Below the pieces are notes generated by a model, which ran no database searches, was not told the origin of the DNA, and worked only from the letters and a program-made list of their open reading frames with translations. From NCBI GenBank assembly GCA_018674305.1, contig JABHAL010000004.1, forward strand, positions 446 to 64,445: a stretch of DNA of 64,000 nucleotides. Direction: 5' to 3'. This DNA comes from Candidatus Falkowbacteria bacterium (GTDB lineage: Bacteria > Patescibacteriota > Patescibacteriia > UBA11705 > JABHMO01). The translations under genes were made by a program, and so were the position numbers. Numbering within the stretch: the stretch's first letter is position 1; each line of letters starts with the position of its first letter. Positions 3,262 to 47,140 of this stretch are shown here, piece by piece.

Positions 3262-5310
3262 TTAATTTTGAGGGACACATTGCTTTAATGTATTATCCCA
3301 TAATATATTATTATTATTTTCTGTTTTACCGCAAAAACAACCAGCACCAAAAGCAATTTCTCCGAGACCGCTATATGAAATCAAATCTGGATTACACTCA
3401 CAACCGTTACTGGGATTATTATCAAAATCCATCCAACCATCACCACATTCCCACTGACACTGAAACTCATCCGCATATATTATACCATTATTGGTATTAT
3501 AACTGTAGTCTGGCTCTATATATGCTTTGATGTTTGGCTTGGTTAAACTAACTAACACTCTACAACCACTGACAATTGTATTTCCATTTAATTGAACTTT
3601 ATTCAGTCCAGAAATAGCATCTAAAACACTCACATCAGTTACTTGGTTATTTCTAAAATCAAGTTCTTTCAAATTAGACAAATTATCTAAACCTGACAAA
3701 TTATTAATATTATTATTTTCAGCCCAAAGCTTTTCTAGCTTAGTTATATTTTGAATCGGGCTTAAGGACTGAATTACATTATCTCCAATATCTAAATATT
3801 TAACATTAGTACTATTTTCTAAACCGACTAAACTACTAATAAAATTATTATTTAATCCCAACCTACCTTCTATTTTTGTTAAATTGGCTAAAGCAGAAAT
3901 ATTCTGGATATTATTATATCCCAGTCGGAGTGTTTTAAGTTCAGATAAATTGGTTAAAGCTGAAATGTCACTAATATTATTGTTTTCAGCATACAAAGCT
4001 ACAATATTAGTCAAGTTCGCCAAAGCAGAGAGATTACTAATACTGTTTTGACCAATGGTCAAAACCCACATATCTGGGAAATTTGCTAAAACTGAAATAT
4101 CAGAAAGACCGCTATTACTGGAAATATCTAACGTTTTTAATTTAATTAAATTTTCCAGTGAAGATATATCAACTACACTATTATTCGCTAAATAAAGTGA
4201 TTTCAAATTAATCAAGTTTTCCAATGGTTTAACATTAGTAATACCATTAAATCTCAAGTCAAGCGTTTCTAAATTGACTAAATTTGTCAGTGGCGCCAAA
4301 TCAAGATTAGTGATGTTGGAATTATAGCCGACCATACATAATTTTTTCAATTTAGACAAATACTCAAGACCACTTAAATTTGCCACCGGTTTATCCACCT
4401 TCGTGATAAAAGGTTGAGCAAAACAACCAGCTTGAATTAACTCTTCTATGTCCTGAACATCTGAAACTATGATATCTTCATCAAGTTTATCAATTTTTTG
4501 TCTTATAATTGTTTCTAAATTTTCATCTGGGAAAGTTATAACAGAATTTGGGTCTATAATTGGATCCGCCGCTGGAACCACTTCCGGCTCAACCGAAACC
4601 AATACACATCGCCCCTCTAAACAACTACCTGGACAATCATAACTGTTCCAACTAACTTTACCGGTATTTTCATTACAAAAATATTCCAATATGCGTCCTT
4701 CATTCCAACACTTATCATCAGCTTCATAAAACTCGTCCGTTGTCGGATGAATACCGCTAATATGTCCTCTTTTAGTCAGATTAGCAAATTTATATGTCTT
4801 GTATGGTAATCCCACATCATTTTTATCTTTTTCATCACTATCTATACAAGCCCGATCACTTTCTGCCGACATGCCAAAACCTACCAATCTTTTTCTTAGC
4901 GATTTTTTTGTTCTTCCTTTTCTGCTTATTACATTAAGTTCAGCTTTATACCTTTTAACTTCCTGTGGCTTGAAAACAACTGTAACCCTACAAGTTTCTC
5001 GTGGTTTCAAAACATGCTTACAAGTTGTCTTGTTAGTATTAATTGTGAAACCCTTAGCTAAACTTTTGATAGCAAAGTTAATAGGCTGTCGCTTTTCCAT
5101 GTTTTTTACCACAAAAGTTTTGCTAGCTAAATCACCAACCATAACAGTCCCAAATTTATATGTCCCACGATCAAGAAATTGCAAGCCTGTATTATTAGCT
5201 GCATTAACCCCAATCATTGCTGCTGCCACGGCTGCAATAATTCCTGCCACTACTACTTTAGTAACTGCCTTAGTATTGGTTTTTATCTCTGTTCGTGTCT
5301 TTGTTTGCAT
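3262..5310 (-). CDS. Large secreted/anchored surface protein. Same N-module as 958..3252, followed by ~15 leucine-rich repeats (internalin-like) and a Cys-rich C-terminus.
   Basis: Paralog of the upstream gene. LRR motifs L..L..L.L..N.I.D.S.L. Start chosen at MQTKTR with an AAGGA RBS. The 9-bp gap to the next gene suggests an operon. Confidence 0.65.
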   Translation of the reverse strand: MQTKTRTEIKTNTKAVTKVVVAGIIAAVAAAMIGVNAANNTGLQFLDRGTYKFGTVMVGDLASKTFVVKNMEKRQPINFAIKSLAKGFTINTNKTTCKHVLKPRETCRVTVVFKPQEVKRYKAELNVISRKGRTKKSLRKRLVGFGMSAESDRACIDSDEKDKNDVGLPYKTYKFANLTKRGHISGIHPTTDEFYEADDKCWNEGRILEYFCNENTGKVSWNSYDCPGSCLEGRCVLVSVEPEVVPAADPIIDPNSVITFPDENLETIIRQKIDKLDEDIIVSDVQDIEELIQAGCFAQPFITKVDKPVANLSGLEYLSKLKKLCMVGYNSNITNLDLAPLTNLVNLETLDLRFNGITNVKPLENLINLKSLYLANNSVVDISSLENLIKLKTLDISSNSGLSDISVLANFPDMWVLTIGQNSISNLSALANLTNIVALYAENNNISDISALTNLSELKTLRLGYNNIQNISALANLTKIEGRLGLNNNFISSLVGLENSTNVKYLDIGDNVIQSLSPIQNITKLEKLWAENNNINNLSGLDNLSNLKELDFRNNQVTDVSVLDAISGLNKVQLNGNTIVSGCRVLVSLTKPNIKAYIEPDYSYNTNNGIIYADEFQCQWECGDGWMDFDNNPSNGCECNPDLISYSGLGEIAFGAGCFCGKTENNNNILWDNTLKQCVPQN

Positions 5311-5399
5311 AAAACTATCCTTAATAAACAATAAATGTTAAACCATAAACTAATTTATTAAGTTTTAAATTATATATTTATTTTTACTTTAACAAATTA

Positions 5400-6392
5400 C
5401 TAGTTTTTCAATTCCAATTCTTGCTCAAAAATATCTTTATGTTTATCTAATTCACCTACTGCCGCTAAATAAAGTTGTTTTACTTTTTCTTGATCACTTA
5501 ATCTTTCTTCGACTAAACTACGTAAAATTTCAATTGTCTGTTCATGGGTCTTGGTTCCACGGATACGAAAAGCCTGATATTTATCAGCAATAACTAAGCG
5601 CACTCGAAAGGCCTGATATTTATCAGCTAATTCCAGAGAAGCCATCTGAGGATCCACATTTTCTATTCCTACCCTAGCTGGATCATGGCCATCAATCATG
5701 TGATGACTAGCTGCCACTTCCACAACCCGATTATCAACACCTTGATCTCTTAAAATATCATATGACCAATAAACATGCGCTGACCACAAAAGTCCCATGC
5801 GGATTTTTTTTCCTATTTTTGTTTCAAATCTTTTTTCTTGTTGTTTTTTTCCTGCTGAAACAATTCTTGTTAATATTTCATCCGCTCTCTCTTCAGTCAA
5901 ATCACCTTCATCAACCTTAATTTGCAAAGCTTGCTGTAAAGTCAATTCTTGTGGTGTGACTTCATGATTATTAACTGTGTAAATTATTTGATTAAAATCT
6001 AAATTGAACACATCCACAAACGCTTGTTGCTCTTCCGGTGTGGCTTCAGCTGGCCCAGACTTGCCTACATCATGAACCAAGCAAGCAAACCGCAGTTCAT
6101 TCATTTCACTTTCGTCCATTTCAATATCCTCAACCAAATTATCAATAATCTCGGAAATTTCTACTGCATCCTGAAAATGAGAATTGCGTTTTTGAAGATT
6201 TAATCCTTCAATGTTTGACAATTTACTCAAACGATTCAAAATTGTTTGTGATACATTTTCATAACCCAAAGCACCAAACAATTCCTGAATTTGTTCTGGG
6301 CTTCTTTTGTCATTATGAAAATCTCTTTTTAATTTTTGTTCATACAGATTATGCATGAACATATCATTTTCAAACGGCATAACAAAAACCAA
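5400..6392 (-). CDS. HD-domain phosphohydrolase
   Basis: 330 aa with the motif ACLVHDVGK. Contains an in-frame internal duplication (ADKYQAFR x2). Confidence 0.55.
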   Translation of the reverse strand: MVFVMPFENDMFMHNLYEQKLKRDFHNDKRSPEQIQELFGALGYENVSQTILNRLSKLSNIEGLNLQKRNSHFQDAVEISEIIDNLVEDIEMDESEMNELRFACLVHDVGKSGPAEATPEEQQAFVDVFNLDFNQIIYTVNNHEVTPQELTLQQALQIKVDEGDLTEERADEILTRIVSAGKKQQEKRFETKIGKKIRMGLLWSAHVYWSYDILRDQGVDNRVVEVAASHHMIDGHDPARVGIENVDPQMASLELADKYQAFRVRLVIADKYQAFRIRGTKTHEQTIEILRSLVEERLSDQEKVKQLYLAAVGELDKHKDIFEQELELKN

Positions 6393-6444
6393 AATAAGAA
6401 CTTCTTAAGTGAAGCTAATTTATTCATAGAAATTATACCATATT

Positions 6445-7773
6445 TTATCTTTTTCTCCTATTACTTTTAATTATATAAAACAAAATCAAATACATCACAA
6501 CCATCACCCACCAGCTAATATTAACTTCCACTGACGCCCATTTAAATGCTGAAAATATTTCGACTACTTTGATTACATACCCCAAGACCAACCACGAGAA
6601 CCAACCAATTATTTGACCAAGAAACAAATATACAGATGAAGAGATAAACTGCAAAAAACCAACTAACATAGCGATTGGAATCACTGGCAAAACCAACAGA
6701 TTAACAACTGGTGCCACAATTGAAAGTCGGCCGAACTGAAATAGGATTAACGGTAGAGTAAAAATTATTGCGGATAACGTTGAAGTTAAATTTTCCTGCA
6801 AACCAAATTTCCTTGGCACCCATTTAAATCCTTTAATCAACTTTGGAGATAAATAAACTAAACCTATTGTTGCCAAAAATGAGAGCTGAAAACCAGCATC
6901 CCAAATCAAAATTTTTGGATTAAACAATGCCATCACTACGGCTGACAAAATTAAAACATTACTTACCTTACTTTTTCTGCCTAAATGTTTAGCCAACAAA
7001 ACTATACTACCCATTATAGCGGCCCGAATCACCGACGCGCTGGCACCAGTTAAAATCACAAAGAAAAATAACGCAATTAATATCCCCCATATTGATTTTT
7101 TGCGATTAATTGAAAGTGAAGTGAAAAAATTCAAAAGTAAAATCACGATAATCGTAATATTATAACCAGAAATAGCGATAATATGCGTTATCCCGGTAAC
7201 ATTGAACTTATTTAACAGATCCTGCGGGATCCCCTGTCGTGCCCCCACCAATATCCCACCAACTAAAGCTGCTTGCGGTTCCGCCACTGTACGATTAATT
7301 TTTGTTTGCATCAGCCACTTTAACTTGAGTATGCCGGCAATAAGGATATTGCCGCTTCCGGTTCGTAATGAACGGATTTGTGGCTGATAACACACTGAAT
7401 AAATTCCGTAACGTGCCAAATATCTATCATATTTAAAATTCTCAATTTGCTCGGGAGTTTGCAATTTACATTTAACTTCCAATAAATCACCATATTCAAA
7501 CTCTGGATATAATTGAGTCCGAAGCAAAACTTTTCCTCTAAGTTCTGTCGGTTTAACGGTTAGCTTCTGGTGATCCAATCGAACATCCGGCTCTGTGGAA
7601 ATCACAGCCTGAAAAGTCATCTGTTTATTATTATAAAAAGAAATATGTTTTTCATTAAACTTGGGAGAATAAAATATCGCCCAACTCAATTGAAACAGTA
7701 GGATAACAAAACAAATCAGGAAAAACTTTTGCGACTTTTTAAGTTTCATAAATTCATTATAACAAAAAAGCAC
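6445..7773 (-). CDS. comEC: ComEC/Rec2-family DNA internalization channel (DUF4131 plus competence domain, no beta-lactamase domain)
   Basis: 442 aa. N-terminal TM plus OB-like region, polytopic membrane core with an IIAISGYNI motif. Confidence 0.65.
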   Translation of the reverse strand: MLFCYNEFMKLKKSQKFFLICFVILLFQLSWAIFYSPKFNEKHISFYNNKQMTFQAVISTEPDVRLDHQKLTVKPTELRGKVLLRTQLYPEFEYGDLLEVKCKLQTPEQIENFKYDRYLARYGIYSVCYQPQIRSLRTGSGNILIAGILKLKWLMQTKINRTVAEPQAALVGGILVGARQGIPQDLLNKFNVTGITHIIAISGYNITIIVILLLNFFTSLSINRKKSIWGILIALFFFVILTGASASVIRAAIMGSIVLLAKHLGRKSKVSNVLILSAVVMALFNPKILIWDAGFQLSFLATIGLVYLSPKLIKGFKWVPRKFGLQENLTSTLSAIIFTLPLILFQFGRLSIVAPVVNLLVLPVIPIAMLVGFLQFISSSVYLFLGQIIGWFSWLVLGYVIKVVEIFSAFKWASVEVNISWWVMVVMYLILFYIIKSNRRKR

Positions 7774-7794
7774 CCTTATTAAGAGTGCTGTGTT

Positions 7795-8400
7795 CTACTT
7801 AGTCGGACAAGTCTTGATTTTCTGAACCACATATAACCACAATAAATTCAAACTTCCCTTAGCGTATTTGTAGTTGACTTTAAGTTTCCGGAACTGTTTA
7901 TTTACCGTTGTTGGGATAAAAGGAACTCGGTCACTAACAACCTTGGCCACGAGCACCGGCACATTATATTTCTTCGCCAATGCAGTTACGTGATAAGTTT
8001 CCTGATCAACAGCAACAACTCCACGTGAAATACCGAAGCGATGCCGGACCATTCCGTGAAAAGTTTGAAAAACTCCCTTTTCAACTCCCTTTTTCAGATT
8101 AATTGTTCTTGGAAAAATCCTTGTTGTATCAATGTCGAGTCGCTGAGTCATCAATGTCCCTGGTTTTCTGTAACGTACTTGAGTTGCGATGACAGTATTG
8201 CCAACTTTTAAATTTCTATTGACCGAACCGCAAAGCCCAAAACAGATTATCATATCCGGGACTTCTTTTTCCAGCTCAACACCTAAATTTTCAATGGTTT
8301 TGGAACAACCGATCCCAGTCACAATAATTTTCGACACAAACCCATTATCTGCACCGAAAGGAATCTCACCTTCATCAGCAACAACCAGCCAGATATTCAT
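7795..8400 (-). CDS. Purine nucleoside phosphorylase/MTA-SAH nucleosidase family (PNP_UDP_1)
   Basis: 201 aa. Fold-family pattern IIVTGIGCSK...VVAVDQETYHV. Confidence 0.45.
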   Translation of the reverse strand: MNIWLVVADEGEIPFGADNGFVSKIIVTGIGCSKTIENLGVELEKEVPDMIICFGLCGSVNRNLKVGNTVIATQVRYRKPGTLMTQRLDIDTTRIFPRTINLKKGVEKGVFQTFHGMVRHRFGISRGVVAVDQETYHVTALAKKYNVPVLVAKVVSDRVPFIPTTVNKQFRKLKVNYKYAKGSLNLLWLYVVQKIKTCPTK

Positions 8401-8530
8401 TCCTTCCTCCCTTTTATTTACTTTCTTTTCATTAAATATTATCCTATGAAACGTGTTTTGTCAAGGCTGTCCCAGTTGCCAAACTTGCTTAATTGCATTA
8501 TGCTTGGCATATAAACATTAAACAAAATAT

Positions 8531-9025
8531 ATGCAAGTACCAACCAGGCGCTATGATGCCAAAGCCAAAGCAACTGACCCACTGATAACTCAGCAAAAGT
8601 TTGATGAGCTAAATAATAATCTTGAAAAGTTACAAAAAAAATTGCCAAATGCCATGTCTGAAGTTTCCCGGTTAGCAGAGATGGGTGATTTCTCAGAAAA
8701 CGCAGCTTATCAAATGGCCAAAGGCCGCTTGCGTGGTATCCATAGACGAATTCAGGAAATTGAAACGCAACTAAAACATTCAGCAATTATTGAAGCCAAA
8801 CAAAACACTGATTCAGTTCACTTGGGACAAAAAGTTACTGTCAAAAGCGACGGTCAAACAAAAACTTTTCAAATTCTGGGACAAACTGAAACCAATCCCA
8901 GCGCAGGAATCATTTCCCGCTATTCCCCACTGGGGACTTTGCTTTTAGGTAAAAAAATCGGTGACATTGTTGAAGTACAATCAGAAAATAAACTCATTAA
9001 ATATCAGATAGTTAGTATTGATTAA
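8531..9025 (+). CDS. greA: Transcription elongation factor GreA
   Basis: 164 aa. GDFSENAAYQMAKGRL and the C-terminal FKBP-like region align with GreA. The antisense ORF 8439..8786 is judged spurious. Confidence 0.85.
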   Translation: MQVPTRRYDAKAKATDPLITQQKFDELNNNLEKLQKKLPNAMSEVSRLAEMGDFSENAAYQMAKGRLRGIHRRIQEIETQLKHSAIIEAKQNTDSVHLGQKVTVKSDGQTKTFQILGQTETNPSAGIISRYSPLGTLLLGKKIGDIVEVQSENKLIKYQIVSID

Positions 9026-9187
9026 TGTTTATTCTGTTTTTAAAAAAATGCTTAGTATTTACTGAGTTTTTTTGATTTTCTATTTACAATATAAGACCAA
9101 AACAACCTATTGACATACTCCAAAGAACTTGTTAATCTACTCTATTGAGCCTACTATCTAGGCACAAAAGACTAAACGGAGGATATT

Positions 9188-9622
9188 ATGAGTGGTCAAA
9201 CATTCAGTATTTTGTGGGGAACCAACGATGTAGGACAATTTGCCATACAAAAAACGTTAGCTAAGCTCCAGGAACTTGGGCACAAATTGTTCTTCACTGA
9301 AGACCCAACTGAGCTGCTAAACGCACTGGGTTCACCAGACAGAACCTTTGATCTGGTGGTCATTGAACCTGAGCATCTGAAAAAGTCAGACGACTGGCCA
9401 GAAGCCGAAGGTAGTAATCAACCACGGGTTCACACCGGCTATGCGCTAGCCGCAGAAATCAGAAAAAATTACGCCCGGCTGCGGATTATGATTCTCACTT
9501 CTTTTACCCCACAAGAAGAAACACTAGAACAATGCGGTCTAACTGCTATTGAAAACTGGGGCACAATTGTTCGCAAGCCCTGCCTGAGCGAAGACCTTAT
9601 TCAGGCTATTGAAACCGGTTAA
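9188..9622 (+). CDS. Receiver-like (CheY-fold) domain protein, probably degenerate
   Basis: 144 aa. DLVVIEPE, ILTS and RKP follow the receiver pattern, but the acidic pocket is not canonical. Confidence 0.35.
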   Translation: MSGQTFSILWGTNDVGQFAIQKTLAKLQELGHKLFFTEDPTELLNALGSPDRTFDLVVIEPEHLKKSDDWPEAEGSNQPRVHTGYALAAEIRKNYARLRIMILTSFTPQEETLEQCGLTAIENWGTIVRKPCLSEDLIQAIETG

Positions 9623-9628
9623 TAATCA

Positions 9629-9664
9629 CAAACGCTCCAATTCAATTTTGGAGCGTTTTTTTAT
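9629..9664. terminator. Intrinsic terminator (aaacgctccaa...ttggagcgttttttt)
   Basis: Perfect hairpin plus T-run between convergent genes. Confidence 0.8.
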
Positions 9665-9684
9665 CAGAATAAATTATTTGATTA

Positions 9685-11610
9685 TTATTCAACCAAAACA
9701 TCCTGTTCCAAAACCTCATCTGTAGATTTTACCAAGTCACTGATTAATTTAATCCACAACTTTTCTTCCACCGTGCTTAAATTTTCTTTACTTGTCATTA
9801 CTCTATAAATATCGGATTTAGCATTACCCTGAATAATTAAATCCTGATTTTTGAAGTAAATTTTACCCAAGCACTTATTTAGGATTGGTGAATTGTACTG
9901 TTTTGTGAATAGACTGGTGCCCCAAAAATTTTCTCGTGGTACATAATCAGACTGTTCAATCAAATTTAAAATAGTTGGAGAAATATCCATGTGACTGGCT
10001 TGCGTAACGATTTCCCCCTTGAACCCTTGCGGAAAAACAATGGTCATCGGAAGCTGATTATAAGAATCAAAAACTAGTTGTTCATTACTACCATCAAAAC
10101 TATAATATCTATGATCACTATAAATAACCACAATTGTATTTTTATCTAACCCTTTATTTTTCAAGCTGATCATCAAATTTTCCAAAGCGTCGTCAGAAGA
10201 TTTCAGGAAACCAAAGAATAAACGCATTTGCTCTTCATTTATTTCCGAACTGTTAACCAACCAAGGATTAATTTTTCCGACAAAAGGTTTTATTTCTAAA
10301 TTATTGGCATCTAATTGATAGTCAATTTGTTCCTGGTCATGAGGAGCATGAGAAGTAAAACTCAAAACATATCCGAAGAATGGTTTTGATTCTTTATTTA
10401 ATTCAGTCAAAGCTCGCTGAAAAACTTGGTCATCATTTAACTTTTGCCTTAAATCAGGCGCAAAATATGTATTATCAAAGCCCCACCGAGGAATCAAAGT
10501 TTCACGATCCCAAAATTCCGGTACATTAGAATGAAAAAAATGGGTTGAATAATTGTAATCATCCTTCAAAATTTCTGGCAAACAGTTAAATTTATTTTCT
10601 TTATGAGAATAACCAATTGGCTCAAATGAATTTGGCCAAAAACTACACAAAGAAGCAAACTCAGCGTTTATGGTTTCACAACTATTTGCATGAAAATCGC
10701 CAATCGTAACATTGTTCTGCATTAATTTTTTGAGATATGGCATTGGTGACGGATCATTATCAACAGCCCAACTGCCGACCGACTCCAACTGTACAACTAA
10801 AATATTTGGACGCTCCTTGAACTTCGGTAAATATAATTGGCTCTCTGTCTCTGGGTTGAATTTTTTAATCTCCAACCAACTATCCTCAGCAACTTGCAAT
10901 GCTGTGCGATCATCATCCTGATTGTCATCTTTGTTTTTGGCATTCGCATAAAGCTGAGAATAAAAATGACCCAAAAACCCCACATCTGAAAGTTGTTTTT
11001 TTATATCCCACCAGGTTTCTCTAGGATTATTATATAAATATGAACAAGTGCTAAAAGCCACTGTGTTAATAATCGCAAAAACAACAATCAAAAACACCAA
11101 ATTACGCATTGGGCGTTTTTTATAATGAAAAATTAGTTTTAATGGCTGTGAATTAAAAAGTAAGTGCTCAACCTTTTTATCTATAATAAGTAAATATACT
11201 ATTGAGTTTAATATTGCTGCCAAATATACTACTATTGCTAAAACATACAATTTAACTGGCACCAAGCTAGCAAAATCTTGCAAAAAAGTAATCATACTTA
11301 AGTCCAGCTGAGAAGCCTGGCGCATACTAAAATCTACAAAAGATTTAAATACTCCGAAATATGCAAAGTTAAACAATGAAACTAAATATACTGCTCCCAA
11401 AAATAATAAGCTGAGCGCCCTCCACCAACGAAAACGTAAAAAATTAAACATCAAAAAATAACTCAAAGTAGCGATCGAAACAAAAAATAAATGCAACCAG
11501 GTGAAACTAAAATCTAATAATGAAAAGTAAATAAAAAAGTATATTACATTAAAAAAAAGTAATATGAAGTAAAAAATTACTGCTATTATTAACCTCCTTT
11601 GATTAAGCAT
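9685..11610 (-). CDS. LtaS-like/sulfatase-family membrane protein (alkaline-phosphatase superfamily phosphoglycerol transferase)
   Basis: 641 aa. Multi-TM N-terminus plus an extracytoplasmic sulfatase-like domain. Confidence 0.55.
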   Translation of the reverse strand: MLNQRRLIIAVIFYFILLFFNVIYFFIYFSLLDFSFTWLHLFFVSIATLSYFLMFNFLRFRWWRALSLLFLGAVYLVSLFNFAYFGVFKSFVDFSMRQASQLDLSMITFLQDFASLVPVKLYVLAIVVYLAAILNSIVYLLIIDKKVEHLLFNSQPLKLIFHYKKRPMRNLVFLIVVFAIINTVAFSTCSYLYNNPRETWWDIKKQLSDVGFLGHFYSQLYANAKNKDDNQDDDRTALQVAEDSWLEIKKFNPETESQLYLPKFKERPNILVVQLESVGSWAVDNDPSPMPYLKKLMQNNVTIGDFHANSCETINAEFASLCSFWPNSFEPIGYSHKENKFNCLPEILKDDYNYSTHFFHSNVPEFWDRETLIPRWGFDNTYFAPDLRQKLNDDQVFQRALTELNKESKPFFGYVLSFTSHAPHDQEQIDYQLDANNLEIKPFVGKINPWLVNSSEINEEQMRLFFGFLKSSDDALENLMISLKNKGLDKNTIVVIYSDHRYYSFDGSNEQLVFDSYNQLPMTIVFPQGFKGEIVTQASHMDISPTILNLIEQSDYVPRENFWGTSLFTKQYNSPILNKCLGKIYFKNQDLIIQGNAKSDIYRVMTSKENLSTVEEKLWIKLISDLVKSTDEVLEQDVLVE

Positions 11611-23849: not shown

Positions 23850-25190
23850 TCACAAATTCAAAATTCCGCGAGCGACAATCAAACCTGTAGCCGCCGCCCC
23901 AGTAATATTTCCAGAAAGACCTGCACCGTCACCAGCTACATACAAACCCTTAATATTGGTTTGTAGATCTTTTTCTGTTTTTAACTTTGAAGAACGAAGT
24001 TTAATTTCTGGCGCATATAATAAAGTATGTGGCGAAGCAATGCCTGGTAAAACTTGATCCAACATTTCTAAACCTTCTTTAATGTTTTTTACAATTCTAT
24101 GAGGTAAAGCCATAGAAATATCACCCGGTGTTACATCTTTTAGACTTGGAATAACAAAACTTTTACTAATTCTTTCCCAAGTACTACGCCTTCCCTTATA
24201 TAAATCAGCCATTCTCTGCACAATTGGTTTACCTCCTCCAATTGTGGTCGCCAACTTGGCAATTGATTTAGCATAAGCAATTGTATTTTCTACCGGCTCC
24301 GTTAAAGTCACCTCACTCACAAAAGCAAAATTAGAATTTAATGAATTATGATCTGAATTTGAATGTCCATTCACACAAACAAAATCCTTGTATTGTTCTG
24401 CCGCTACATGACCTTTTGGACAAGGACAAAAAGTTCTTACCACATCATCAAAAGTTGGCGTCCTCATCATAAATACCGTTTCATACATTAAATCTGCATG
24501 TTTTTTTAAAACAGCTTCTGGAAATTCTACTCTTACACCCACTTCAACTTTTTCATAGGTGTATGGCAAATTATATTTTTCCGATATTTTTTGTAACCAG
24601 CGAGCCTTAATTCGTCCGGGCGCTAAAATAACTTTGTCGGCAAAAATGTCACCTTTATCTGTTTTCACACCCGTTACACTTGTTCCACTTATAATAATAT
24701 CAATCACTTCAGTTTGATCTTTTATAATCAGCCCTTTATTTAATAAATGATTTTCAAAATTCTCAATTACCTGTGGTAATTTATCACTACCAACATGTCG
24801 CGCTTTGCGCACAAATAATTTAATACTTTTTTTCTTGGCGTCATCTGCTAATCGATTTGCCTCATCAATATCTTTTGGATAATATTCTGCAGTTACACCA
24901 AATCTGGTAAATAATTCATCAACATAATCCAAATACTTTTGATATTCTGCTTCATTATATAAATGTAGCATTTTTTCATGACTTAAAACAGGTGTGTAAT
25001 GCAATTTACCGTCAGAAAAAGAACCAGCTCCACCAATGCCTGACATAACCTCACTTCTTTGTCGATTTTTTATTAAATTACCAAGCTCGATTAAACAAAC
25101 CTTTAGATCTGGCTTTTGATTAACCAATTCATATGCAGCAAACATTCCTGCCGGCCCTCCGCCAACAATGATCACATCAAATTTTTCCAT
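23850..25190 (-). CDS. FAD-dependent oxidoreductase (COG2509-like)
   Basis: VIIVGGGPAGMFAA Rossmann motif. Confidence 0.6.
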   Translation of the reverse strand: MEKFDVIIVGGGPAGMFAAYELVNQKPDLKVCLIELGNLIKNRQRSEVMSGIGGAGSFSDGKLHYTPVLSHEKMLHLYNEAEYQKYLDYVDELFTRFGVTAEYYPKDIDEANRLADDAKKKSIKLFVRKARHVGSDKLPQVIENFENHLLNKGLIIKDQTEVIDIIISGTSVTGVKTDKGDIFADKVILAPGRIKARWLQKISEKYNLPYTYEKVEVGVRVEFPEAVLKKHADLMYETVFMMRTPTFDDVVRTFCPCPKGHVAAEQYKDFVCVNGHSNSDHNSLNSNFAFVSEVTLTEPVENTIAYAKSIAKLATTIGGGKPIVQRMADLYKGRRSTWERISKSFVIPSLKDVTPGDISMALPHRIVKNIKEGLEMLDQVLPGIASPHTLLYAPEIKLRSSKLKTEKDLQTNIKGLYVAGDGAGLSGNITGAAATGLIVARGILNL

Positions 25191-25290
25191 AAATAATATA
25201 ATATTATTTAACACTCTTATTATACTACCACACTAATTTTCGAACCACAACAAAAAAGAGCCTTACAGTGTAGTAAGACTCTTGGTGCGG

Positions 25291-25845
25291 CTAAAAGTGG
25301 CCGCAGTATCCGTCCCAGTTGTCGACTGGGTATTGACTTTCGTCTAAGTTCCACTCACCTGTGTCCTCATCTTCCCAACCTTCACCGCAAGCGTAGCGGT
25401 AGGCCTGTCCTTCCTTCATCCCGAAGTAGAACTGGTGTGAGGCGTTGCGGCCCACCTGGTAAAACATTACCCCTTCCCGCTCCATTGAATACGGTTCAAG
25501 GCTGTCTTCAAACTCCAGATGCATGCGGATCATGGACTCAGCTCTTTCGTCGCCACCGTGCAACTTCTCAGCAAAGTCCTTAGCTGTGGCGTCACGCTTC
25601 GCGTCAACAATCTGATCATCAGCATACATTGCTTTCATCTGATCAATAATTGCCTGGTCTGTGACCAGCTCACGATCACCGAAGCTATTCTTGCGAAAAA
25701 ACACCATGCCGAAAAACGAACCTTCCGAGGTGACCATCTCGTGCTCAACCTGCCAGCCTTCTCCGATCTTGAACCCCTGGGTCTCCAGCGACTGACCATC
25801 GATCTCCACACCGGACCAAAAACTCACGTTCTTCTGCTGATTCAT
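25291..25845 (-). CDS. Hypothetical protein encoded in the GC-rich island
   Basis: 184 aa after trimming to MNQQKN with a GGAGG RBS. No family recognised. A terminator hairpin lies downstream at ~25255-25290. Confidence 0.45.
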   Translation of the reverse strand: MNQQKNVSFWSGVEIDGQSLETQGFKIGEGWQVEHEMVTSEGSFFGMVFFRKNSFGDRELVTDQAIIDQMKAMYADDQIVDAKRDATAKDFAEKLHGGDERAESMIRMHLEFEDSLEPYSMEREGVMFYQVGRNASHQFYFGMKEGQAYRYACGEGWEDEDTGEWNLDESQYPVDNWDGYCGHF

Positions 25846-25952
25846 GGTGAACCTCCAATGTATTATTAAATTTATTCTCTTCAAAAGTCAATCTTGCAAT
25901 TGACTGCTCAAGAGAGTCACCGTTGTCTGACAACGGATCATCTTTGCGTGAG

Positions 25953-26129
25953 TCACCTCTTTTTGACCCTTCCCATTCTGGGCATCCCCCCAGTGGGTTG
26001 CGAACGCATTGCCCGCTCGAACAGGTACTGCTCACGGGTTACGCTTCCACGCTCCCGACCACCAGCAGTAAACCCATTCTGACGAAGAAAACTCGTCGCC
26101 TCAGCCACCAGATTCCGCGCGTTCCGCAT
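25953..26129 (-). CDS. Small basic ORF (58 aa) directly downstream of promoter module 1
   Basis: Hand-translated as MRNARNLVAEATSFLRQNGF...GRVKKR with a GGAG RBS 8 nt upstream. It falls below the ORF-track length cutoff. Confidence 0.3.
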   Translation of the reverse strand: MRNARNLVAEATSFLRQNGFTAGGRERGSVTREQYLFERAMRSQPTGGMPRMGRVKKR

Positions 26130-26150
26130 TGGCTATCTCCTTTTGTTAAG

Positions 26151-26218
26151 CCATCAGAAAAATTAATTTTCATTAATTGCTCTGATGAATGCACAAGTAA
26201 ATGTTACTTATGCACAAG
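26151..26218 (-). promoter_or_regulatory. Promoter-like module copy 1 (conserved core plus direct repeat TGCACAAG x2)
   Basis: Shares catca...ttaattgctctgatga with copies 2-4. An RBS and ORF follow on the minus strand. Confidence 0.45.
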
Positions 26219-26812
26219 AAACGCAATGACAAGGGTTATCCACTTTACCGAGACATTTTCCCCATAATAGTATGACTTAACAACAATGGCTCACTAAAAG
26301 TCCATTGTCCCCTGTCTGAAAGGTTTGTCGCTAAGACTTTACCTTCCTTTTTAAAGAACCCTTTATAACCATAGAACGTGTATGGCTGGTTCTTTTCGTA
26401 ATGGTGCTTGCGTACACCTACGATCGTCCTAATGAACTCAACACTACCTTTTACTAGTGCTGTCTCACCCCATAGCCGGTTGAGCAATATGCTCCCGGCC
26501 TGCCCCTGAGCAACCCTTACACAATTTTTACTGCAAGTTATTGGTCATGTCGACTTAACAAATTACTTACACACTATTTTTTCGCAGTGAACTAGAATCT
26601 CAAATCTATGGCCCTTATCCCATAGACCCTCTAGCTCTGAAGAATAATATTTTCCAACGCTCCTAAGAGTCTGTTAGAAAAATTACTCTTCTCTTCAGGC
26701 TCCCCAGAAAACAACCATTGTCATGTGTTAGACAATAATCGTTTGTGAGTTCTGCCCTCGGTACTGGCTGCTGCGAACAACCTATCCCAGTGGTTTTAGA
26801 CTTTTCGCAAAG

Positions 26813-26878
26813 TCATCACAATAATCAATAAACATAATTACTCTAATGAGCACGCAAACACCTGCTACATGCGCTCGC
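26813..26878 (-). promoter_or_regulatory. Promoter-like module copy 2 (core plus imperfect palindrome gagcacgca...tgcgctc)
   Basis: gtcatcacaataatcaataaacataattactctaatga core. Sits just downstream of the small gene 26882..27064. Confidence 0.4.
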
Positions 26879-26881
26879 TAA

Positions 26882-27064
26882 CTATTTACTTGCACTTGGA
26901 GCCTTACACTCCTTACAACCTAGGCAAGGCGGGCGCCCAAACGGGTATTTTGGACAGTCTACCCGAACAGCAACCTCTCTCAAATACCTCTCATGCTCGT
27001 CTTCAATACTGAAAGGCTCGTCGGTCTCAAAATCCCAACCACTAATCATTTCGCCTTTTCTCAT
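26882..27064 (-). CDS. Small Cys-rich (zinc-ribbon) protein
   Basis: 60 aa from MRKGEM with an AAGGAG RBS. C-terminus CPKYPFGRPPCLGCKEC. Confidence 0.45.
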   Translation of the reverse strand: MRKGEMISGWDFETDEPFSIEDEHERYLREVAVRVDCPKYPFGRPPCLGCKECKAPSASK

Positions 27065-27080
27065 CACTATCTCCTTTATT

Positions 27081-27150
27081 AGAGTCATCAAAATAATCAA
27101 TTTTTATTAATTACTCTGATGATTGCACAAGCTCTAGGAGCTTGTGCAAG
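27081..27150 (-). promoter_or_regulatory. Promoter-like module copy 3 with the perfect palindrome GCACAAGCTC-TAG-GAGCTTGTGC
   Basis: Read on the minus strand as TTGTGC ... TAATTAAT ... AAGGAG ... ATG directly upstream of 26882..27064. Confidence 0.5.
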
Positions 27151-27837
27151 TAGGGAGATGACTGTAGGTGGACAATCATCAGTGCGACACTCACTCCCGA
27201 TCAAGAGAGTCTCCACCACCGCTGCTTAACGGCTGTCGCTTTGACCACACATCCTGGATTCTTGGCCACCCGCCTTGACCGCCCGAAGGCGAGGCAGGAG
27301 GCCTCCATCCAAGTTTCAAGTTAAGGGAGTGTGCGCCCCCTATAGCCTCAGTCAGTTTCTTGCATCTCCGCCCGGCCAAAGGCTTTGACACATGCGAGGG
27401 GTTGGCCTCGCTTCCGCTTTACATCGTATAAGACCCTTCCCCTGGGCCAAACACGCATTGCGGCATGGCCCGACACTGACTGATTTGCTCTACCTTTACC
27501 TTTAACATAGAATTTTATGTTAAATTCCCTGTGCTGGTAGCAGAGCGGGTCCCCTCCCGTAAGCTTGCGACTCACGACAGACAACCACCAACTTTACCGA
27601 CTCCACCTTATTGGCGTAAGGCAAGCCACTAACTTCCTTTGCTCCGACCAAGAGCTTGGACCACATCTTCTCAAGGTGACTCCCCCTGTCATTAGGGGCC
27701 CTGTTCACGATAACTCCGAAGAGCTTCTCGCTAGAAAATGTGGTGGAGATTTGGATAACAGGCAAGCCTGATACCCTGCCTTCCCCGGGATAGGGTAGAC
27801 ATATCGTTCCTTACGGAACTATCAGGCACTCCACAGC

Positions 27838-27902
27838 CATCGTAATAATCAAAGCTTTATTTAATTGCTACGATAGGTGCGCGAATATTTTTATTCACGC
27901 AA
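27838..27902 (-). promoter_or_regulatory. Promoter-like module copy 4 with the palindrome TGCGCGAATA-TTTTT-TATTCACGCA
   Basis: ccatcgtaataatcaaagctttatttaattgctacgata core. Upstream (on the minus strand) of the ORF-poor GC-rich core. Confidence 0.4.
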
Positions 27903-28519
27903 GAGTTTATTTGCGCAGTGGTAAAATGCTTTCATTTACCTGTCTAGGTTCTCGCTAAGAGTAGCCTAGACTTTTTGTATTTTGTTCTACAAAACCTTTA
28001 CTTCCTCGTATCACCTCCAATGGACGTTATCGATCTTTGTTTGGTGAGGTCAGCCAAGGCTTCAACCTGGGAAAGCAGCTGCGCGCTACCAACCGGTGCA
28101 ATATAGAACATAAATTGATAATGACCACATCTCATCCCCCAAGCCCCGAAGAACTTTAGGAAATGAGTCTAGTCTCATTAAGTTTATCTCTAAATCCCTC
28201 TGTAATATGTTGCCAGATAAATAAATTTGAATTAATGGCATTTATATAAGCGAGGGATATATTTCCGGAAACAAGGGTTCAGTTGTTACACCTACATCCT
28301 TATTTCTAGAATACAAGCAAATTGCCTGTACTGGTCGAGAACAAAAAACTTTTTTTTACTCAACATAGAAGTATAGCATGCATTTTAAAACTTGTCAAGT
28401 ACCGTCAACAAAAGTTTACTCGTTTCTACTTTTTTTATTTAATTTTAGCTAAATCATAACACTGAAAACTGTTGAAACGCTTCGTCGTAAATCGCGAGCA
28501 GAATCGCTTTAATTTTCCT

Positions 28520-28556
28520 AAAACAAAAACAGCCCCTTTAACAGGGCTGTTTTTAG
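28520..28556. terminator. Intrinsic terminator downstream of ileS (cagccctgttaaaggggctg plus T-run)
   Basis: Hairpin with run read directly. Confidence 0.7.
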
Positions 28557-28568
28557 AATATGCTTATC

Positions 28569-31454
28569 TTATTTTTCAAGAGTTATCTTAATTGTTTCAT
28601 CATTAACCTTAACTTCGGTTTCTCCGCCCCCTTCTTCAACTTCAGTTAATAATGTAGCTTGTTTTAATTTTTCAACCATATCTTCATTAGCGAATAATTT
28701 TTTAAGTTGTTCCCCTTTTGTAGAATAAACTAATTTAACTTGATCCGTTCGAGTTAAACCCTGATTTTTACGAAGATTGTTTATTTGCCTGGTTAACTCA
28801 CGAACTAAACATTCAAGTTTTAATTCATCCGTTAATTCAATGTTTAATCCCACCTTTACGTTTGAAGCTTCTTTAACAACACGATCTGCTTGTTCTCTCA
28901 CCTCTTTGGTGTGTTTTACTTCTTTGACATTAAGTTCTTCCGCAATAATATTTTCTAATTGGTTATCAAGTTTTGTACCTTGATAACGAAGATACTGTAA
29001 TGGCTGTCGAACCTTAATTTGTTTTTCATCACGCGCAGACAATCCAAGCTCCACAACTTGCCGAGCTAATTCCATATCTTTCAAAACATTTTCATCAATT
29101 AATTTTTTATCAGACACTGGCCATTCTGCTAAATGCACTGATTCCTTTTCGCCATCAAGCTTTTGATAAAAACTATCCGCTGCAAACGGCATAAAAGGTG
29201 CGATTAATTTCACAAATTCATTTAAGACATAATTTAAAGTCGCTACTGCATTTTCTTTATCTGCTCCTTCAGTTTTGAATCTATCTCGTGAACGACGAAC
29301 ATACCAAGTAGATAGCTCATCAATAAAATCCATAATCTTTCGCCCACTTTCAAAAACATGATATTCCTCCAAATCTTTCGTCACATCCCGAATTAGTAAA
29401 TTTAACTTTGAAACAATCCAAACATCCAAAACATTCTTACTTTTCACTTTTAACTTTTCACTTTTAACTTCTCCATACATTCCATAAAAATTAACAACGT
29501 TACCGAGCAACATTACAGTCTTACGAAGGACATCTTTAACTGCATTCTCATCAAAATTCTTTGGCTCTCCCGGTTGATTAATTGTATACAAATGCATACG
29601 CAGAGCATCAACTCCATACTTATCAGCAATCATCCATGGATCTATAACGTTTCCTTTTGACTTACTCATTTTCTTTCCATCTTTATCACGAATATGTCCA
29701 AGGCAAATCACATTTTTATAACTAGCACCTTTACCAAGAAAAGTTGAAACTGCCAGCAACGTATAAAACCAACCACGAGTTTGATCAATCGCCTCAGAAA
29801 TATATTCAGCTGGATATTGCTCTCCACTATCAACTAATTCCTTGTTTTCAAAAGGATAATGATGCTGAGCAAATGGCATTGACCCTGCATCAAACCAACA
29901 ATCACAAACATCAGAAGTTCTCTTCATCTGACCGCCACAACCACAACCATATTCTAAAGTATCAACGTATGGTCGATGAAAATCCAACTCACCCTTACCA
30001 TTTTTTGGTAATGCACCTGTCTTTTTCTCAAGCTCGGCAAAGTCACCAATCACTTCAAACTTTTCACACTTATCACATTCCCAAATCGGAAGTGGTGTGC
30101 CCCAATATCGTTGTCTGGAAATAGCCCAATCTTTAACGTTTTCTAACCACTCACCAAATCTTCCAGTTTTAATATGGTCAGGCACCCAATTTATCTTTGC
30201 ATTATTTTTTATTAACTCATCTTTCAACGCAGACATTTTTATAAACCAAGAATCCTTTGCGTAATAAAGCAATGGGCTATCACAGCGCCAACAAAACGGA
30301 TAATCATGTTCATACATTCGTTCTTTCAATAACAAACTACGTTCTTCTAAATCTTCAACAATTTCTTTTTCAACTTTAGAACTTTTAACAAACTTTCCGG
30401 CCCACTTCTGAACGCTTTCAACAAATTTTCCACCTTCATCAACAGTATGAACAAACGGTAAATCATTTTCTAGACCAAATTGAAAATCATCTTCACCATA
30501 CATTACTGCAGTATGCACAATTCCAGTTCCGTCTTCGGTAGTGACAAAATCTGCCTTACCCACGAACCAGGCCTTTTTATCGCCAGCATCCACCGCACCA
30601 GGAAATAATGGTTCATATTCTATTCCCAATAAATCTTTTCCTATTAATTTTTCAACAACTTCAACCTTGTCTTCAAAAACTTCGCCAAGCAATGATTCAG
30701 CCAGAATATAAAATTCATTTTCAACTTTAACTTTCACATAACTGATACTTTCACCAACCGCAAGAGCAATATTTCCCGGCAAAGTCCAAGGAGTTGTCGT
30801 CCAAGAAAGAATGAAGGTGTCTTTTTGATCTTTGACTTTAAATTTGATATAGATTGAAGTTTCCTCCACATTTTTGTAACCTTGCGCAACTTCGTGAGAA
30901 GATAGTGCAGTTCCACAGCGCGGGCATTGCGGGACAACTTTATATCCTTTGTAAACTAAACCCTTCTCATGCGCCTGATTAAAAATCCACCACAATGATT
31001 CAATATAATCATTAGAATAAGTTGTATATGGGTTTTCCATGTCCACCCAGAATGCAATTCTTCGAGTCAGTTCTTCCCAATCTTTTTTGTATCGCCAAAC
31101 GCTTTCTTTGCATTTAACATTAAATTCTTCAATTCCAAATTTTTCAATGTCCGGTTTACCAGAAATTTTTAATTCTTTTTCAACCTGAAGTTCAACAGGC
31201 AACCCATGAGTATCCCAGCCCGCTTTTCTTTCCACATGAAAACCCTGCATTGTTTTGTAGCGTGGAATTACATCTTTGAACGCTCGTGCTAATACATGGT
31301 GAATACCAGGCTTACCGTTAGCAGTTGGTGGGCCTTCAAAAAAAACAAAATTACCTTTAGTCGATTTTTTGTCTAAAGTTTTTTGGAAAATATTTTTTTC
31401 TTCCCATTTTTCTATTAATTTTTCTTCATTTTGAGCGAATTGTGATTTAGCCAT
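28569..31454 (-). CDS. ileS: Isoleucine--tRNA ligase
   Basis: 961 aa. HIGH-like GIHHVLAR, KMSKSKGN, and the IleRS-specific DWAISRQRYWGTPLP. Confidence 0.85.
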   Translation of the reverse strand: MAKSQFAQNEEKLIEKWEEKNIFQKTLDKKSTKGNFVFFEGPPTANGKPGIHHVLARAFKDVIPRYKTMQGFHVERKAGWDTHGLPVELQVEKELKISGKPDIEKFGIEEFNVKCKESVWRYKKDWEELTRRIAFWVDMENPYTTYSNDYIESLWWIFNQAHEKGLVYKGYKVVPQCPRCGTALSSHEVAQGYKNVEETSIYIKFKVKDQKDTFILSWTTTPWTLPGNIALAVGESISYVKVKVENEFYILAESLLGEVFEDKVEVVEKLIGKDLLGIEYEPLFPGAVDAGDKKAWFVGKADFVTTEDGTGIVHTAVMYGEDDFQFGLENDLPFVHTVDEGGKFVESVQKWAGKFVKSSKVEKEIVEDLEERSLLLKERMYEHDYPFCWRCDSPLLYYAKDSWFIKMSALKDELIKNNAKINWVPDHIKTGRFGEWLENVKDWAISRQRYWGTPLPIWECDKCEKFEVIGDFAELEKKTGALPKNGKGELDFHRPYVDTLEYGCGCGGQMKRTSDVCDCWFDAGSMPFAQHHYPFENKELVDSGEQYPAEYISEAIDQTRGWFYTLLAVSTFLGKGASYKNVICLGHIRDKDGKKMSKSKGNVIDPWMIADKYGVDALRMHLYTINQPGEPKNFDENAVKDVLRKTVMLLGNVVNFYGMYGEVKSEKLKVKSKNVLDVWIVSKLNLLIRDVTKDLEEYHVFESGRKIMDFIDELSTWYVRRSRDRFKTEGADKENAVATLNYVLNEFVKLIAPFMPFAADSFYQKLDGEKESVHLAEWPVSDKKLIDENVLKDMELARQVVELGLSARDEKQIKVRQPLQYLRYQGTKLDNQLENIIAEELNVKEVKHTKEVREQADRVVKEASNVKVGLNIELTDELKLECLVRELTRQINNLRKNQGLTRTDQVKLVYSTKGEQLKKLFANEDMVEKLKQATLLTEVEEGGGETEVKVNDETIKITLEK

Positions 31455-37024: not shown

Positions 37025-37101
37025 TGGTGGACCCGGCAGGGATCGAACCTGTGACCTCCTCGGTGCAAGCGAGGCGCTCTAGCCAACTGAGCTACGGGCC
37101 C
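37025..37101 (-). tRNA. tRNA-Ala (anticodon UGC)
   Basis: A hand-folded cloverleaf gives the anticodon loop CTTGCAC, a G3:U70 pair and a GTTCGATCC T-loop. CCA is encoded. Confidence 0.85.
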
Positions 37102-43963: not shown

Positions 43964-44074
43964 GTCCTGGCGACGACCTACTTTCCCACTGTGTAGTATC
44001 ATCGGCGCTACAGGGCTTAACTGCTGTGTTCGGGATGGGAACAGGTGTGGCCCCTGCGCTAGAGTCACCAGGAC
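43964..44074 (-). rRNA. rrf: 5S ribosomal RNA
   Basis: The reverse complement matches 5S conserved blocks (CCTGGCGAC...CATCGGCGCTAC...TTCGGGATGGGAACAGGTG). A flanking processing stem cagagacatagtcctgg / ccaggactatgtctctg is present. Confidence 0.85.
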
Positions 44075-44159
44075 TATGTCTCTGTTTAAATAGAATATTT
44101 GATTCAAGTATAATAATTACAATTTGTAATCCGAAAATGTGAATATTAACATTATAGTG

Positions 44160-47140
<2,981 letters not shown>

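Follow-up and report, generated by a model that had tools for sequence, protein, structure and literature searches.

A candidate large structured non-coding RNA in a hairpin-punctuated operon of a Candidatus Falkowbacteria bacterium

Introduction

A stretch of approximately 0.7 kb without a convincing protein gene, richer in GC than the genome around it, raises the question of what it encodes, how it is transcribed and what its product might do. The stretch lies in 64,000 nucleotides (nt) of DNA (hereafter the window, to which coordinates refer unless another locus is named) from Candidatus Falkowbacteria bacterium assembly GCA_018674305.1 (contig JABHAL010000004.1, positions 446 to 64,445). 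The host is an uncultured bacterium of the candidate phyla radiation (CPR) with an AT-rich genome (~35% GC). In the original prediction the stretch was described as a very GC-rich core, poor in open reading frames (ORFs) and bounded by two promoter modules, which could be either a large structured non-coding RNA or a decayed gene. It was found here that purifying selection maintains base pairing on the minus strand of the stretch and that the stretch is not coding. The best explanation, which we hold to be reasonably probable, is that positions 27838→27150 of the minus strand are a multi-domain structured non-coding RNA of ~690 nt, belonging to a family outside Rfam.

A conserved RNA core

The element at the centre of the analysis is the following:

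27150..27838, minus strand: large structured RNA core, 689 nt, ~30 helices and 18 hairpins, running from 5′ GGCUGUGGAG to CAUCUCCCUAC 3′.

The ORF-poor, GC-rich stretch of the original prediction (27170-27840) is real and nearly the same as this conserved core (27838→27150). The core has a GC content of 53.7%, and in a sliding window the GC fraction was 0.49-0.57 at 27050-27800 versus ~0.30-0.39 in the flanking genes; the description "very GC-rich" therefore holds relative to the AT-rich genome and not in absolute terms (core 49-57% GC).

Loci for comparison were obtained through a 184-amino acid (aa) protein encoded downstream of the core. Two syntenic loci, L007 (ERZ24794647) and L003 (GCA_964434235.1), were contigs fetched via relatives of this protein, and a third, L033 (GCA_964610305.1, a genome of ~52% GC), was reached via a profile search of the protein's family. 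The locus of the window is itself carried also by GCA_018670895.1 and by Joint Genome Institute (JGI) sample 3300024243, and the title of the best-matching protein cluster was "hypothetical protein [Candidatus Falkowbacteria bacterium]". L003 and L011 (CAYSUN010000002.1) are titled 'uncultured Gammaproteobacteria bacterium'; their gene order and sequences match the Falkowbacteria-like locus of the window, and the label is probably wrong.

Nucleotide identity of the core to the window (blastn) was 85.5% in L007 and 78% in L003. As a yardstick, the corresponding values were 84.6% and 64% for the isoleucyl-tRNA synthetase (IleRS) gene and 86.5% and 76.7% for the gene of a flavin adenine dinucleotide (FAD) enzyme; since these identities match, the core is kept as tightly as housekeeping genes. 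A divergent copy was found in L033 (positions 4284 to ~4990; nhmmer E 7e-18), approximately 1 kb upstream of a member of the 184-aa protein family with 38% identity, and L034 is arranged likewise.

Base pairing within the core was assessed in several ways. Compared with shuffled versions, the minimum free energy (MFE) of the minus strand had a z-score of -5.6 versus -2.5 for the plus strand. RNAalifold gave a structure of 227 pairs in 30 helices for the three close homologues, in whose alignment 25 pairs were changed on both sides and yet paired, compared to 0-4 in controls in which the 3′ partner was shifted by 1-3 columns; none of 500 column shuffles reached 25. With L033 added, 60 of the 186 consensus pairs were doubly changed and still paired (shifted-partner controls 4-12), a value again reached in 0 of 500 shuffles, and 94.3% of cells were paired. 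In order to avoid the circularity of a structure derived from the aligned homologues, a structure folded from the window alone was also used; here double changes preserved pairing in 11 of 12 cases in L007 and in all 16 in L003 (null means 1.7 and 3.0, respectively), and none of 2000 permutations reached the observed values. Compensatory pairs were thus far above both column-shuffle and shifted-partner controls, and the structured RNA alternative stands on these changes together with the folding energy.

G·U pairs made up 17% of the paired cells, and when the alignment was read as the plus strand the share of paired cells fell from 94.3% to 78.8% and the alifold energy from -255 to -185 kcal/mol. 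Because of the G·U share and this loss of pairing, the minus strand is taken as the RNA strand, which is the strand that had been proposed and the one that the MFE z-scores also indicate. The sequence is under purifying selection for base pairing on the minus strand.

The hairpin loops include GUAA/GCAA, UUCG (twice) and CGCAA. At one of them the window differs from its relatives:

27266..27301, minus strand: window-specific hairpin extension of ~34 nt, capped by UUCG, standing in place of the GCAA/GUAA tetraloop of L007 and L003 (from the alignments and the loop table).

In structured RNAs, variable stems typically change in this way, a stem extension taking the place of a tetraloop. The blocks kept in all four lineages include the 5′ GGCUGUGGAG, in which the first hairpin has its loop, and AAAUCUCCAC, located ~70-80 nt downstream. 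The two blocks complement each other, which makes a pseudoknot (GUGGAG/CUCCAC) possible; as neither block varies, there is no covariation by which to judge this candidate. A long-range helix closing the 5′ and 3′ ends (GGCUGU/ACAGCC), given by the four-sequence alifold, was not adopted, as the local hairpin CAGCCG/CGGUGG has three compensatory changes in L033.

Absence of coding potential

The alternative of a frameshifted pseudogene, or of small overlapping proteins, has its origin in three successive overlapping minus-strand ORFs in three frames (27520-27765, 81 aa; 27348-27584, 78 aa; 27191-27391, 66 aa), which had been noted in the original prediction and were confirmed; in addition, automated gene calling gave a 73-aa gene within the copy of L007. 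It was observed, however, that substitutions are spread evenly over codon positions, whether all of them are taken together or each ORF fragment separately (p 0.47-0.94), and that most indels (1, 2, 4 or 7 nt) would shift the frame. Nor are the ORFs conserved, the longest ORF of the L003 and L007 copies lying on the opposite strand. A search with the concatenated ORF fragments recovered no protein family among 5.8 billion protein clusters, and the fragments had no match in Pfam or PHROGs. Decay would also leave neither conservation at the level of IleRS nor 60 compensatory pairs. The core is not coding, and a decayed gene or a set of small proteins is extremely improbable.

Hairpin modules at the unit boundaries

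Both ends of the core are marked by copies of a module of ~70 nt, four of which occur in the island (27833-27906, 27081-27153, 26809-26880 and 26147-26219) along with a weak fifth (25872-25945). Each consists of two hairpins, designated HP1 and HP2, and was scored with a covariance model of the module (R1):

27833..27906, minus strand: module 4, directly upstream of the RNA, with GC-rich HP1 (27900→27879) and AU-rich HP2 of 15-16 base pairs (bp; 27874→27839); R1 58.5 bits.
27125..27147, minus strand: HP1 of module 3, GCACAAGCUC-CUA-GAGCUUGUGC, directly 3′ of the RNA core, no U-tract after it.
27086..27121, minus strand: HP2 of module 3, 16 bp, AU-rich, ending ~10 nt before the Shine-Dalgarno sequence of a 60-aa gene.
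26809..26880, minus strand: module 2 (HP1 and HP2), R1 57.8 bits, no Shine-Dalgarno sequence after it.
26147..26219, minus strand: module 1 (HP1 and HP2), R1 75.8 bits, followed by AAAGGAGAUAG and a 58-aa gene.
25872..25945, minus strand: fifth module, weak and degenerate, ahead of the 184-aa gene, R1 28.2 bits, E 0.0016.

HP1 is a GC-rich hairpin of 9-12 bp, the sequence of which varies among copies while the pairing stays. HP2 is an AU-rich hairpin of ~16 bp with a conserved inner sequence (AGUAAUUAAU...AUUGAUUAUU) and outer pairs that co-vary (CAUCAGA/UCUGAUG, UAUCGUA/UACGAUA, UUCCUGA/UCAGGAA and UACCAAA/UUUGGUA). When 14 copies, drawn from four genomes, were compared, 92% of the cells in HP2 were paired and 10 of the 16 pairs were doubly changed. 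In module 3, which as a whole scored 76.6 bits, all 16 positions of HP2 pair, three of them as G·U, while in module 4 the arms read CGUA/UACG as against CAGA/UUUG in other copies, a compensatory difference. HP1 of module 3 has three double-change pairs in the three-sequence alignment and four in the four-sequence alignment; the copy-3 palindrome, put forward in the original prediction as a possible 3′ hairpin of the RNA, is thereby seen to be conserved (27147→27125) with compensatory changes.

The modules are specific to one strand, because at one HP2 pair every one of the 14 copies has G·U, which would not pair if the other strand were read. R1 scores were 58-77 bits on the gene strand versus 16-30 bits on the other (58.5 versus 15.9 bits for module 4). 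Within the 64-kb window convincing matches to R1 were confined to the island, the sole match outside it scoring 16 bits (E 0.55), and a strict 27-nt module pattern had no match in 100 shuffles of the window. R1 also found modules in L003, L007 (at least 8), L028, L031 and L030; the L003 equivalent of the fifth module is at 9899-9973 (R1 27.2 bits). No module was found in L033, which has the RNA. Where a protein gene comes next, HP2 ends 10-12 nt before the ribosome-binding site, and where the RNA comes next HP2 abuts GGCUGUGGAG.

In the original prediction the modules were promoters, with module 4 driving the RNA. In full, this account holds that each module is a promoter, perhaps with an operator palindrome, and that the RNA is a transcription unit of its own. 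The modules are AT-rich, carry a conserved TTGATT/TTAATT hexamer resembling a -35 box and precede every unit. There is, however, no -10 element at a workable spacing, the positions 17 nt past the TTGATT-like hexamer being unconserved, and no minus-strand σ70-like site was called in any module. The outer stems co-vary within a single genome, which fits hairpins and not promoter boxes or a shared operator, and the G·U pair invariant in the 14 copies would be mismatched on the opposite strand. Moreover, the L033 homologue has the same island promoter and no module. Repeated ~70-nt modules thus do exist at both ends of the core; they are strand-specific hairpin pairs and not promoters, and a separate transcription unit starting in module 4 is very unlikely.

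Transcription of the island

The RNA and its modules form part of an island of ~3.1 kb (25250-28400; 44-57% GC), all of it on the minus strand, between the gene of a FAD-dependent protein (23850-25214) and that of IleRS (28569-31454), both of which are also on the minus strand. Its outer signals are as follows:

28370..28398, minus strand: σ70-type promoter, TTGACA, 17 nt, TGcTATACT, matching 11 of 12 consensus positions.
25256..25283, minus strand: intrinsic terminator, 11-bp stem and U-tract, after the 184-aa gene.

From 5′ to 3′ the order is σ70 promoter, 5′ non-coding segment, module, RNA, module, small ORF, module, second non-coding cassette, module, 58-aa gene, 184-aa gene and terminator; more than 1.7 kb of the 3.1 kb is non-coding. 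The promoter is kept in L007, L003 (7970-7998) and L033 (~3937-3967), and L003 has an equivalent of the terminator at 10552-10583. Since one promoter heads the island, one terminator ends it and the modules contain no promoter, the island is read as a single transcription unit, and because HP1 after the RNA is not followed by a U-tract, read-through past the RNA is expected.

The RNA is probably cut out of one long transcript. In the mechanism proposed, the whole island would be transcribed as a single precursor, and HP2 would be recognised or cleaved by an endoribonuclease, or recognised by an RNA-binding protein, so that the precursor is cut at or near HP2. HP1 would remain as a protective 3′ hairpin and the RNA would be released as a stable molecule.

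Known RNA families and distribution

No Rfam 15 family was matched at gathering thresholds in the window and the four loci, and there was no match with permissive filters at E≤10 (window 25000-28600; L007 4840-7400) apart from six chance matches to small unrelated families, all of which lay outside the RNA. ARAGORN found no tRNA or tmRNA at the locus, the only tRNAs in the window being at 37025 and 49496. A search for RNase P motifs and for tmRNA features had given nothing convincing in the original prediction, and cmscan at E≤10 and ARAGORN likewise gave none. Of the classes that had been suggested (GOLLD, ROOL, HEARO or an unnamed one), only the last stood.

The candidates rejected were the following. 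GOLLD had no Rfam model match, and the context is neither phage nor tRNA-adjacent (nearest tRNA ~9 kb away); ROOL likewise had no Rfam model match. For HEARO and the ωRNA of IscB there was no Rfam match, and neither HNH, RuvC nor any other Pfam domain occurs in the ORFs beside the RNA. OLE had no Rfam match and no gene for an oapA-type membrane protein adjoins the RNA. RNase P RNA, tmRNA, signal recognition particle (SRP) RNA and 6S RNA were rejected on the empty cmscan at E≤10 and on rarity. Group I and group II introns had no Rfam match; the element is intergenic and is accompanied by no ORF for a reverse transcriptase, maturase or homing endonuclease.

A 19-nt block that is invariant in the three close homologues was present in one of 185,579 species-representative genomes, a rarity unlike that of a housekeeping RNA. 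In exact-block scans of the species genomes and of the contigs of JGI metagenomes, the RNA turned up in the genome of L003 and in its short contig and nowhere else (one species genome and one metagenome contig); the remaining matches were due to chance. The RNA family thus appears rare, the figures for its spread being those of exact-block scans; these need an exact 18-19-mer, and the divergent L033 copy was missed there and found through its protein neighbour. No phage match was obtained by blastn against 50,697 phage records, nor was a viral-contig homologue found in six IMG/VR pattern scans; the IMG/VR and phage scans gave one chance match of 23 nt, in L032. Near-exact matches of 20-23 nt to GTGGTCAAAGCGACAGCCGTT, with no further similarity, were seen in L013 (896-915), L026 (1457-1479) and L032 (2008-2030), and are probably due to chance or part of an unrelated conserved gene. 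A search of the literature on large non-coding RNAs of the CPR, Patescibacteria and Falkowbacteria found nothing relevant. Since none of GOLLD, ROOL, HEARO, RNase P or tmRNA match, the RNA is a previously undescribed class.

A conserved protein partner and possible function

A single protein was found near the RNA in all four lineages:

25291..25845, minus strand: gene of the 184-aa protein.

Its homologues have amino acid identities of 72% (L003), 49% (L007) and 38% (P0154 in L033), and of 1.84 billion cluster representatives 234 belong to the family at E≤1e-3. The identical protein is listed in 69 blocks of the assembly collection, JGI 3300024243 being one example. An AlphaFold2 model from a 55-sequence alignment (predicted local distance difference test score, pLDDT, 94.9) has a β5-α-α-β5 layout. 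A Foldseek search of this model against solved (PDB) and viral (BFVD) structures gave no match below E 0.03. PUR-α, PC4 and levivirus coat proteins recurred as weak matches; with TM scores of at most 0.26 these were not regarded as evidence of fold relationship. None of the island proteins matched Pfam, PHROG, NCBIfam or PADLOC. Genes for TrmB-type regulators adjoin the 184-aa family in L033, L035 and L038.

The RNA lies upstream of a gene of the 184-aa family in the window, L003, L007 and L033/L034. Because it is always upstream of this family, a shared role in a ribonucleoprotein is offered as a guess: the mature RNA would act in trans together with the 184-aa protein, and possibly also the 58-aa protein, in a ribonucleoprotein of which it would be the RNA component or the scaffold. 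This suggestion is tentative, and we do not regard it as the probable outcome. A broader formulation, which is speculative and rather doubtful, is that the RNA and the 184-aa protein constitute a ribonucleoprotein of a kind not seen before, or that the RNA is an RNA-only machine, borne on a horizontally acquired GC-rich operon in which HP2 tags the units for processing, packaging or exchange. If true, this would be a new organisation for an array of mixed RNA and protein cassettes.

The same position can be read differently. The RNA, together with the 5′ segment and other cassettes, could be a giant cis-acting leader, with no action in trans, which folds co-transcriptionally and controls the 58-aa and 184-aa genes, possibly in response to a ligand, a protein or temperature, or through an effect on the stability of the mRNA. 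It is always upstream of the 184-aa family gene, on the same strand and behind one promoter, with no canonical terminator between; a distant member of the family, in L038, has a long non-coding leader with a tandem repeat of ~250 nt; and the occurrence of the protein family without the RNA fits a lineage-specific regulator. On the other hand, modules and cassettes with their own ribosome-binding sites (window and L007) or ~1 kb of non-coding sequence (L033) intervene, 690 nt with ~30 helices is far above any known riboswitch or leader, and no expression platform is apparent beside the RNA. We consider such a leader unlikely.

Several points weigh against the preferred reading of the core as a structured RNA which is released from the operon transcript and works with the 184-aa protein. 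Members of the 184-aa family occur without the RNA in L029, L035, L036 and L038, so the protein does not need it, and its fold has no nucleic-acid-binding match better than E 0.03. The RNA never directly adjoins the ribosome-binding site of the 184-aa gene, and a shared operon is no proof of a physical complex of RNA and protein. The alignments were plain MAFFT alignments and the structure tested came from the same sequences, which the test with the window-only structure partly avoids; the lineages known number four, of which three are close relatives. Finally, G·T wobbles also form in single-stranded DNA, and the modules could therefore be DNA hairpins.

The CPR is a huge and nearly uncultured branch of bacteria with tiny genomes, in which the devotion of ~0.7 kb to one RNA, and of more than 1.7 kb of the island to non-coding sequence, implies a real function. 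From the constant pairing of the RNA with a protein family that has no recognisable fold follows a concrete RNA-protein hypothesis, and the hairpin-punctuated operon is a convenient system in which to learn how transcripts that mix RNA and protein units are dissected.

Other island units and cassette turnover

The remaining units of the island are as follows:

27906..28362, minus strand: 5′ non-coding segment, 457 nt, candidate second structured RNA or leader, MFE z = -5.3.
26882..27064, minus strand: 60-aa gene with a Cys-rich C-terminus, with AAAGGAGAUAG and ATG ahead.
26220..26808, minus strand: second ORF-poor cassette of ~590 nt, candidate structured RNA, MFE z = -6.7; its sole ORF (80 aa) is doubtful.
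25953..26129, minus strand: gene of a small basic protein, 58 aa, net charge about +8, with AAAGGAGAUAG upstream.

Alignment A6, covering the 5′ segment and its flanks, had a mean column identity of 87% with L007, and with nhmmer the copy of the segment in L003 weakly matched that in L007 (E 1.7e-5). With respect to pairing in this segment, one-sided changes kept 25 pairs and broke 10, and double changes kept 6 and broke 3 (null mean 2). It contains a 51-aa ORF, in which the changes between the window and L007 are mostly non-synonymous. The cassette at 26220-26808 had no nhmmer homologue in the other loci fetched and may be a lineage-specific structured RNA. For the 60-aa protein there was no family match and no homologue in L003 or L007, while the 58-aa protein has a homologue in L003 (35% identity, E 6e-7), and a like gene lies upstream of P0005 in L031.

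The window, L007 and L003 differ markedly in their cassettes. The L007 island (4840-10500, ~5 kb) has at least eight modules and other cassettes than the window. Two of these are non-coding (6690-6960 and 7000-7325), while others encode small acidic Cys-rich proteins and a membrane protein, and there is also a MYG1-like gene. In the comparison with L007, island cassettes turn over much faster than the flanking genes. The corresponding region of L033 (3700-10600, ~7 kb) is gene-poor, with gaps at 3697-6001, 6510-7310, 7762-9201 and 9389-10575; the 1 kb after its RNA homologue is rich in predicted hairpins and may hold several further non-coding RNAs. In L038 a non-coding tandem duplicate of ~250 nt (5700-6200) lies between a promoter-like site and another operon of the 184-aa family.

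Such turnover bears on a further account, namely that the island is a mobile cassette array in which the modules are recombination sites acting as single-stranded DNA, like the attC sites of integrons or the hairpins of IS200/IS605, and in which the RNA is a cassette that has been retained. Cassettes differ sharply among close relatives in which the housekeeping genes on either side are 85-87% identical, with a 60-aa gene, cassette 2 and a 58-aa gene in the window against two other non-coding cassettes, three other small genes, the membrane protein and the MYG1-like gene in L007. Every cassette is bounded by modules, the single heading promoter is reminiscent of integron Pc, and the hairpins are strand-specific in a way that folded single-stranded DNA, which tolerates G·T, would allow. 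No integrase, transposase or HUH nuclease was found in any locus, however, and L033 has the RNA and protein without modules. An identity of the modules with attC was rejected, as the AAC...GTT core triplets were not found in 14 aligned copies and no integrase is among the called genes. Repeats of 70 nt would also allow cassettes to be shuffled by ordinary homologous recombination, and because the distance from HP2 to the ribosome-binding sites is fixed, a role of HP2 in the transcript is indicated instead. A mobile array of this kind is quite improbable.

The raised GC content spans the entire island (25250-28100), protein genes included. This elevation in an AT-rich host, together with the presence of the RNA-protein pair in a genome of 52% GC, suggests that the island was horizontally acquired.

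Elsewhere in the window, 23S and 5S rRNA genes are adjacent at 43965-47140. As no 16S gene lies within the window and the tRNA-Ala gene (37025-37101) is ~7 kb off, the rRNA genes seem to be unlinked. A 163-aa ORF at 44914-45405, inside the 23S gene, is spurious.

Comparison with known systems

The early genes of phage T7 are separated by RNase III sites between the units of one long transcript, and cleavage leaves a 3′ hairpin on the upstream product. The island is similar in that like hairpins repeat between consecutive units under an upstream promoter. It differs in having two hairpins per boundary, a variable HP1 and a conserved HP2, the latter of ~16 bp, AU-rich and with G·U at one pair in 14 of 14 copies; some of its units are large non-coding RNAs, and cleavage here is a prediction.

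With integron arrays the island shares promoterless cassettes in the same orientation, some of them non-coding, one strong promoter, strand-specific imperfect palindromes and variable content. In contrast to integrons it has no integrase and no R/L boxes or AAC/GTT core; there are two hairpins per boundary, the distance between hairpin and ribosome-binding site is fixed, and modules are absent at L033.

The succession of a strong promoter, a non-coding RNA and then a gene for a protein of ~170-190 aa in one transcript recalls type III toxin-antitoxin systems (ToxIN). In ToxIN the protein processes and binds the ToxI RNA, which consists of tandem repeats of ~36 nt, whereas the RNA described here is a unique sequence of 690 nt; there was no match to ToxN, AbiQ or CptN among the defence-system profiles searched and no significant fold match. 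TIGR-Tas systems combine arrays of short guides with a Nop-domain protein. Such arrays do occur in CPR bacteria (PMC12045711). This candidate was rejected, as the units here are of 170-700 nt and no Pfam domain was found in the island proteins of the window that were scanned.

The closest likeness in form is to GOLLD, ROOL and OLE, which similarly extend over hundreds of nt with dozens of helices, GNRA and UUCG loops and covariation, and are non-coding. Elaborate bacterial non-coding RNAs longer than ~500 nt are rare, with roughly a dozen classes known; raiA is a smaller member among these large ornate RNAs, and the roles of GOLLD, ROOL and OLE remain unknown. Large bacterial non-coding RNAs with understood roles serve core functions, namely protein synthesis, RNA processing and protein localisation (PMC10861870). 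Oligomeric cages have been reported for GOLLD, ROOL and OLE (PMC12286853). As with GOLLD and ROOL, it sits in a variable and apparently acquired region. It differs from these RNAs in that there was no model match at E≤10 (window and L007), in being neither tRNA-adjacent nor found in phage contigs, and in lacking an oapA-like partner; it is further set apart by its CPR host, its hairpin-punctuated operon and its co-conserved 184-aa protein family.

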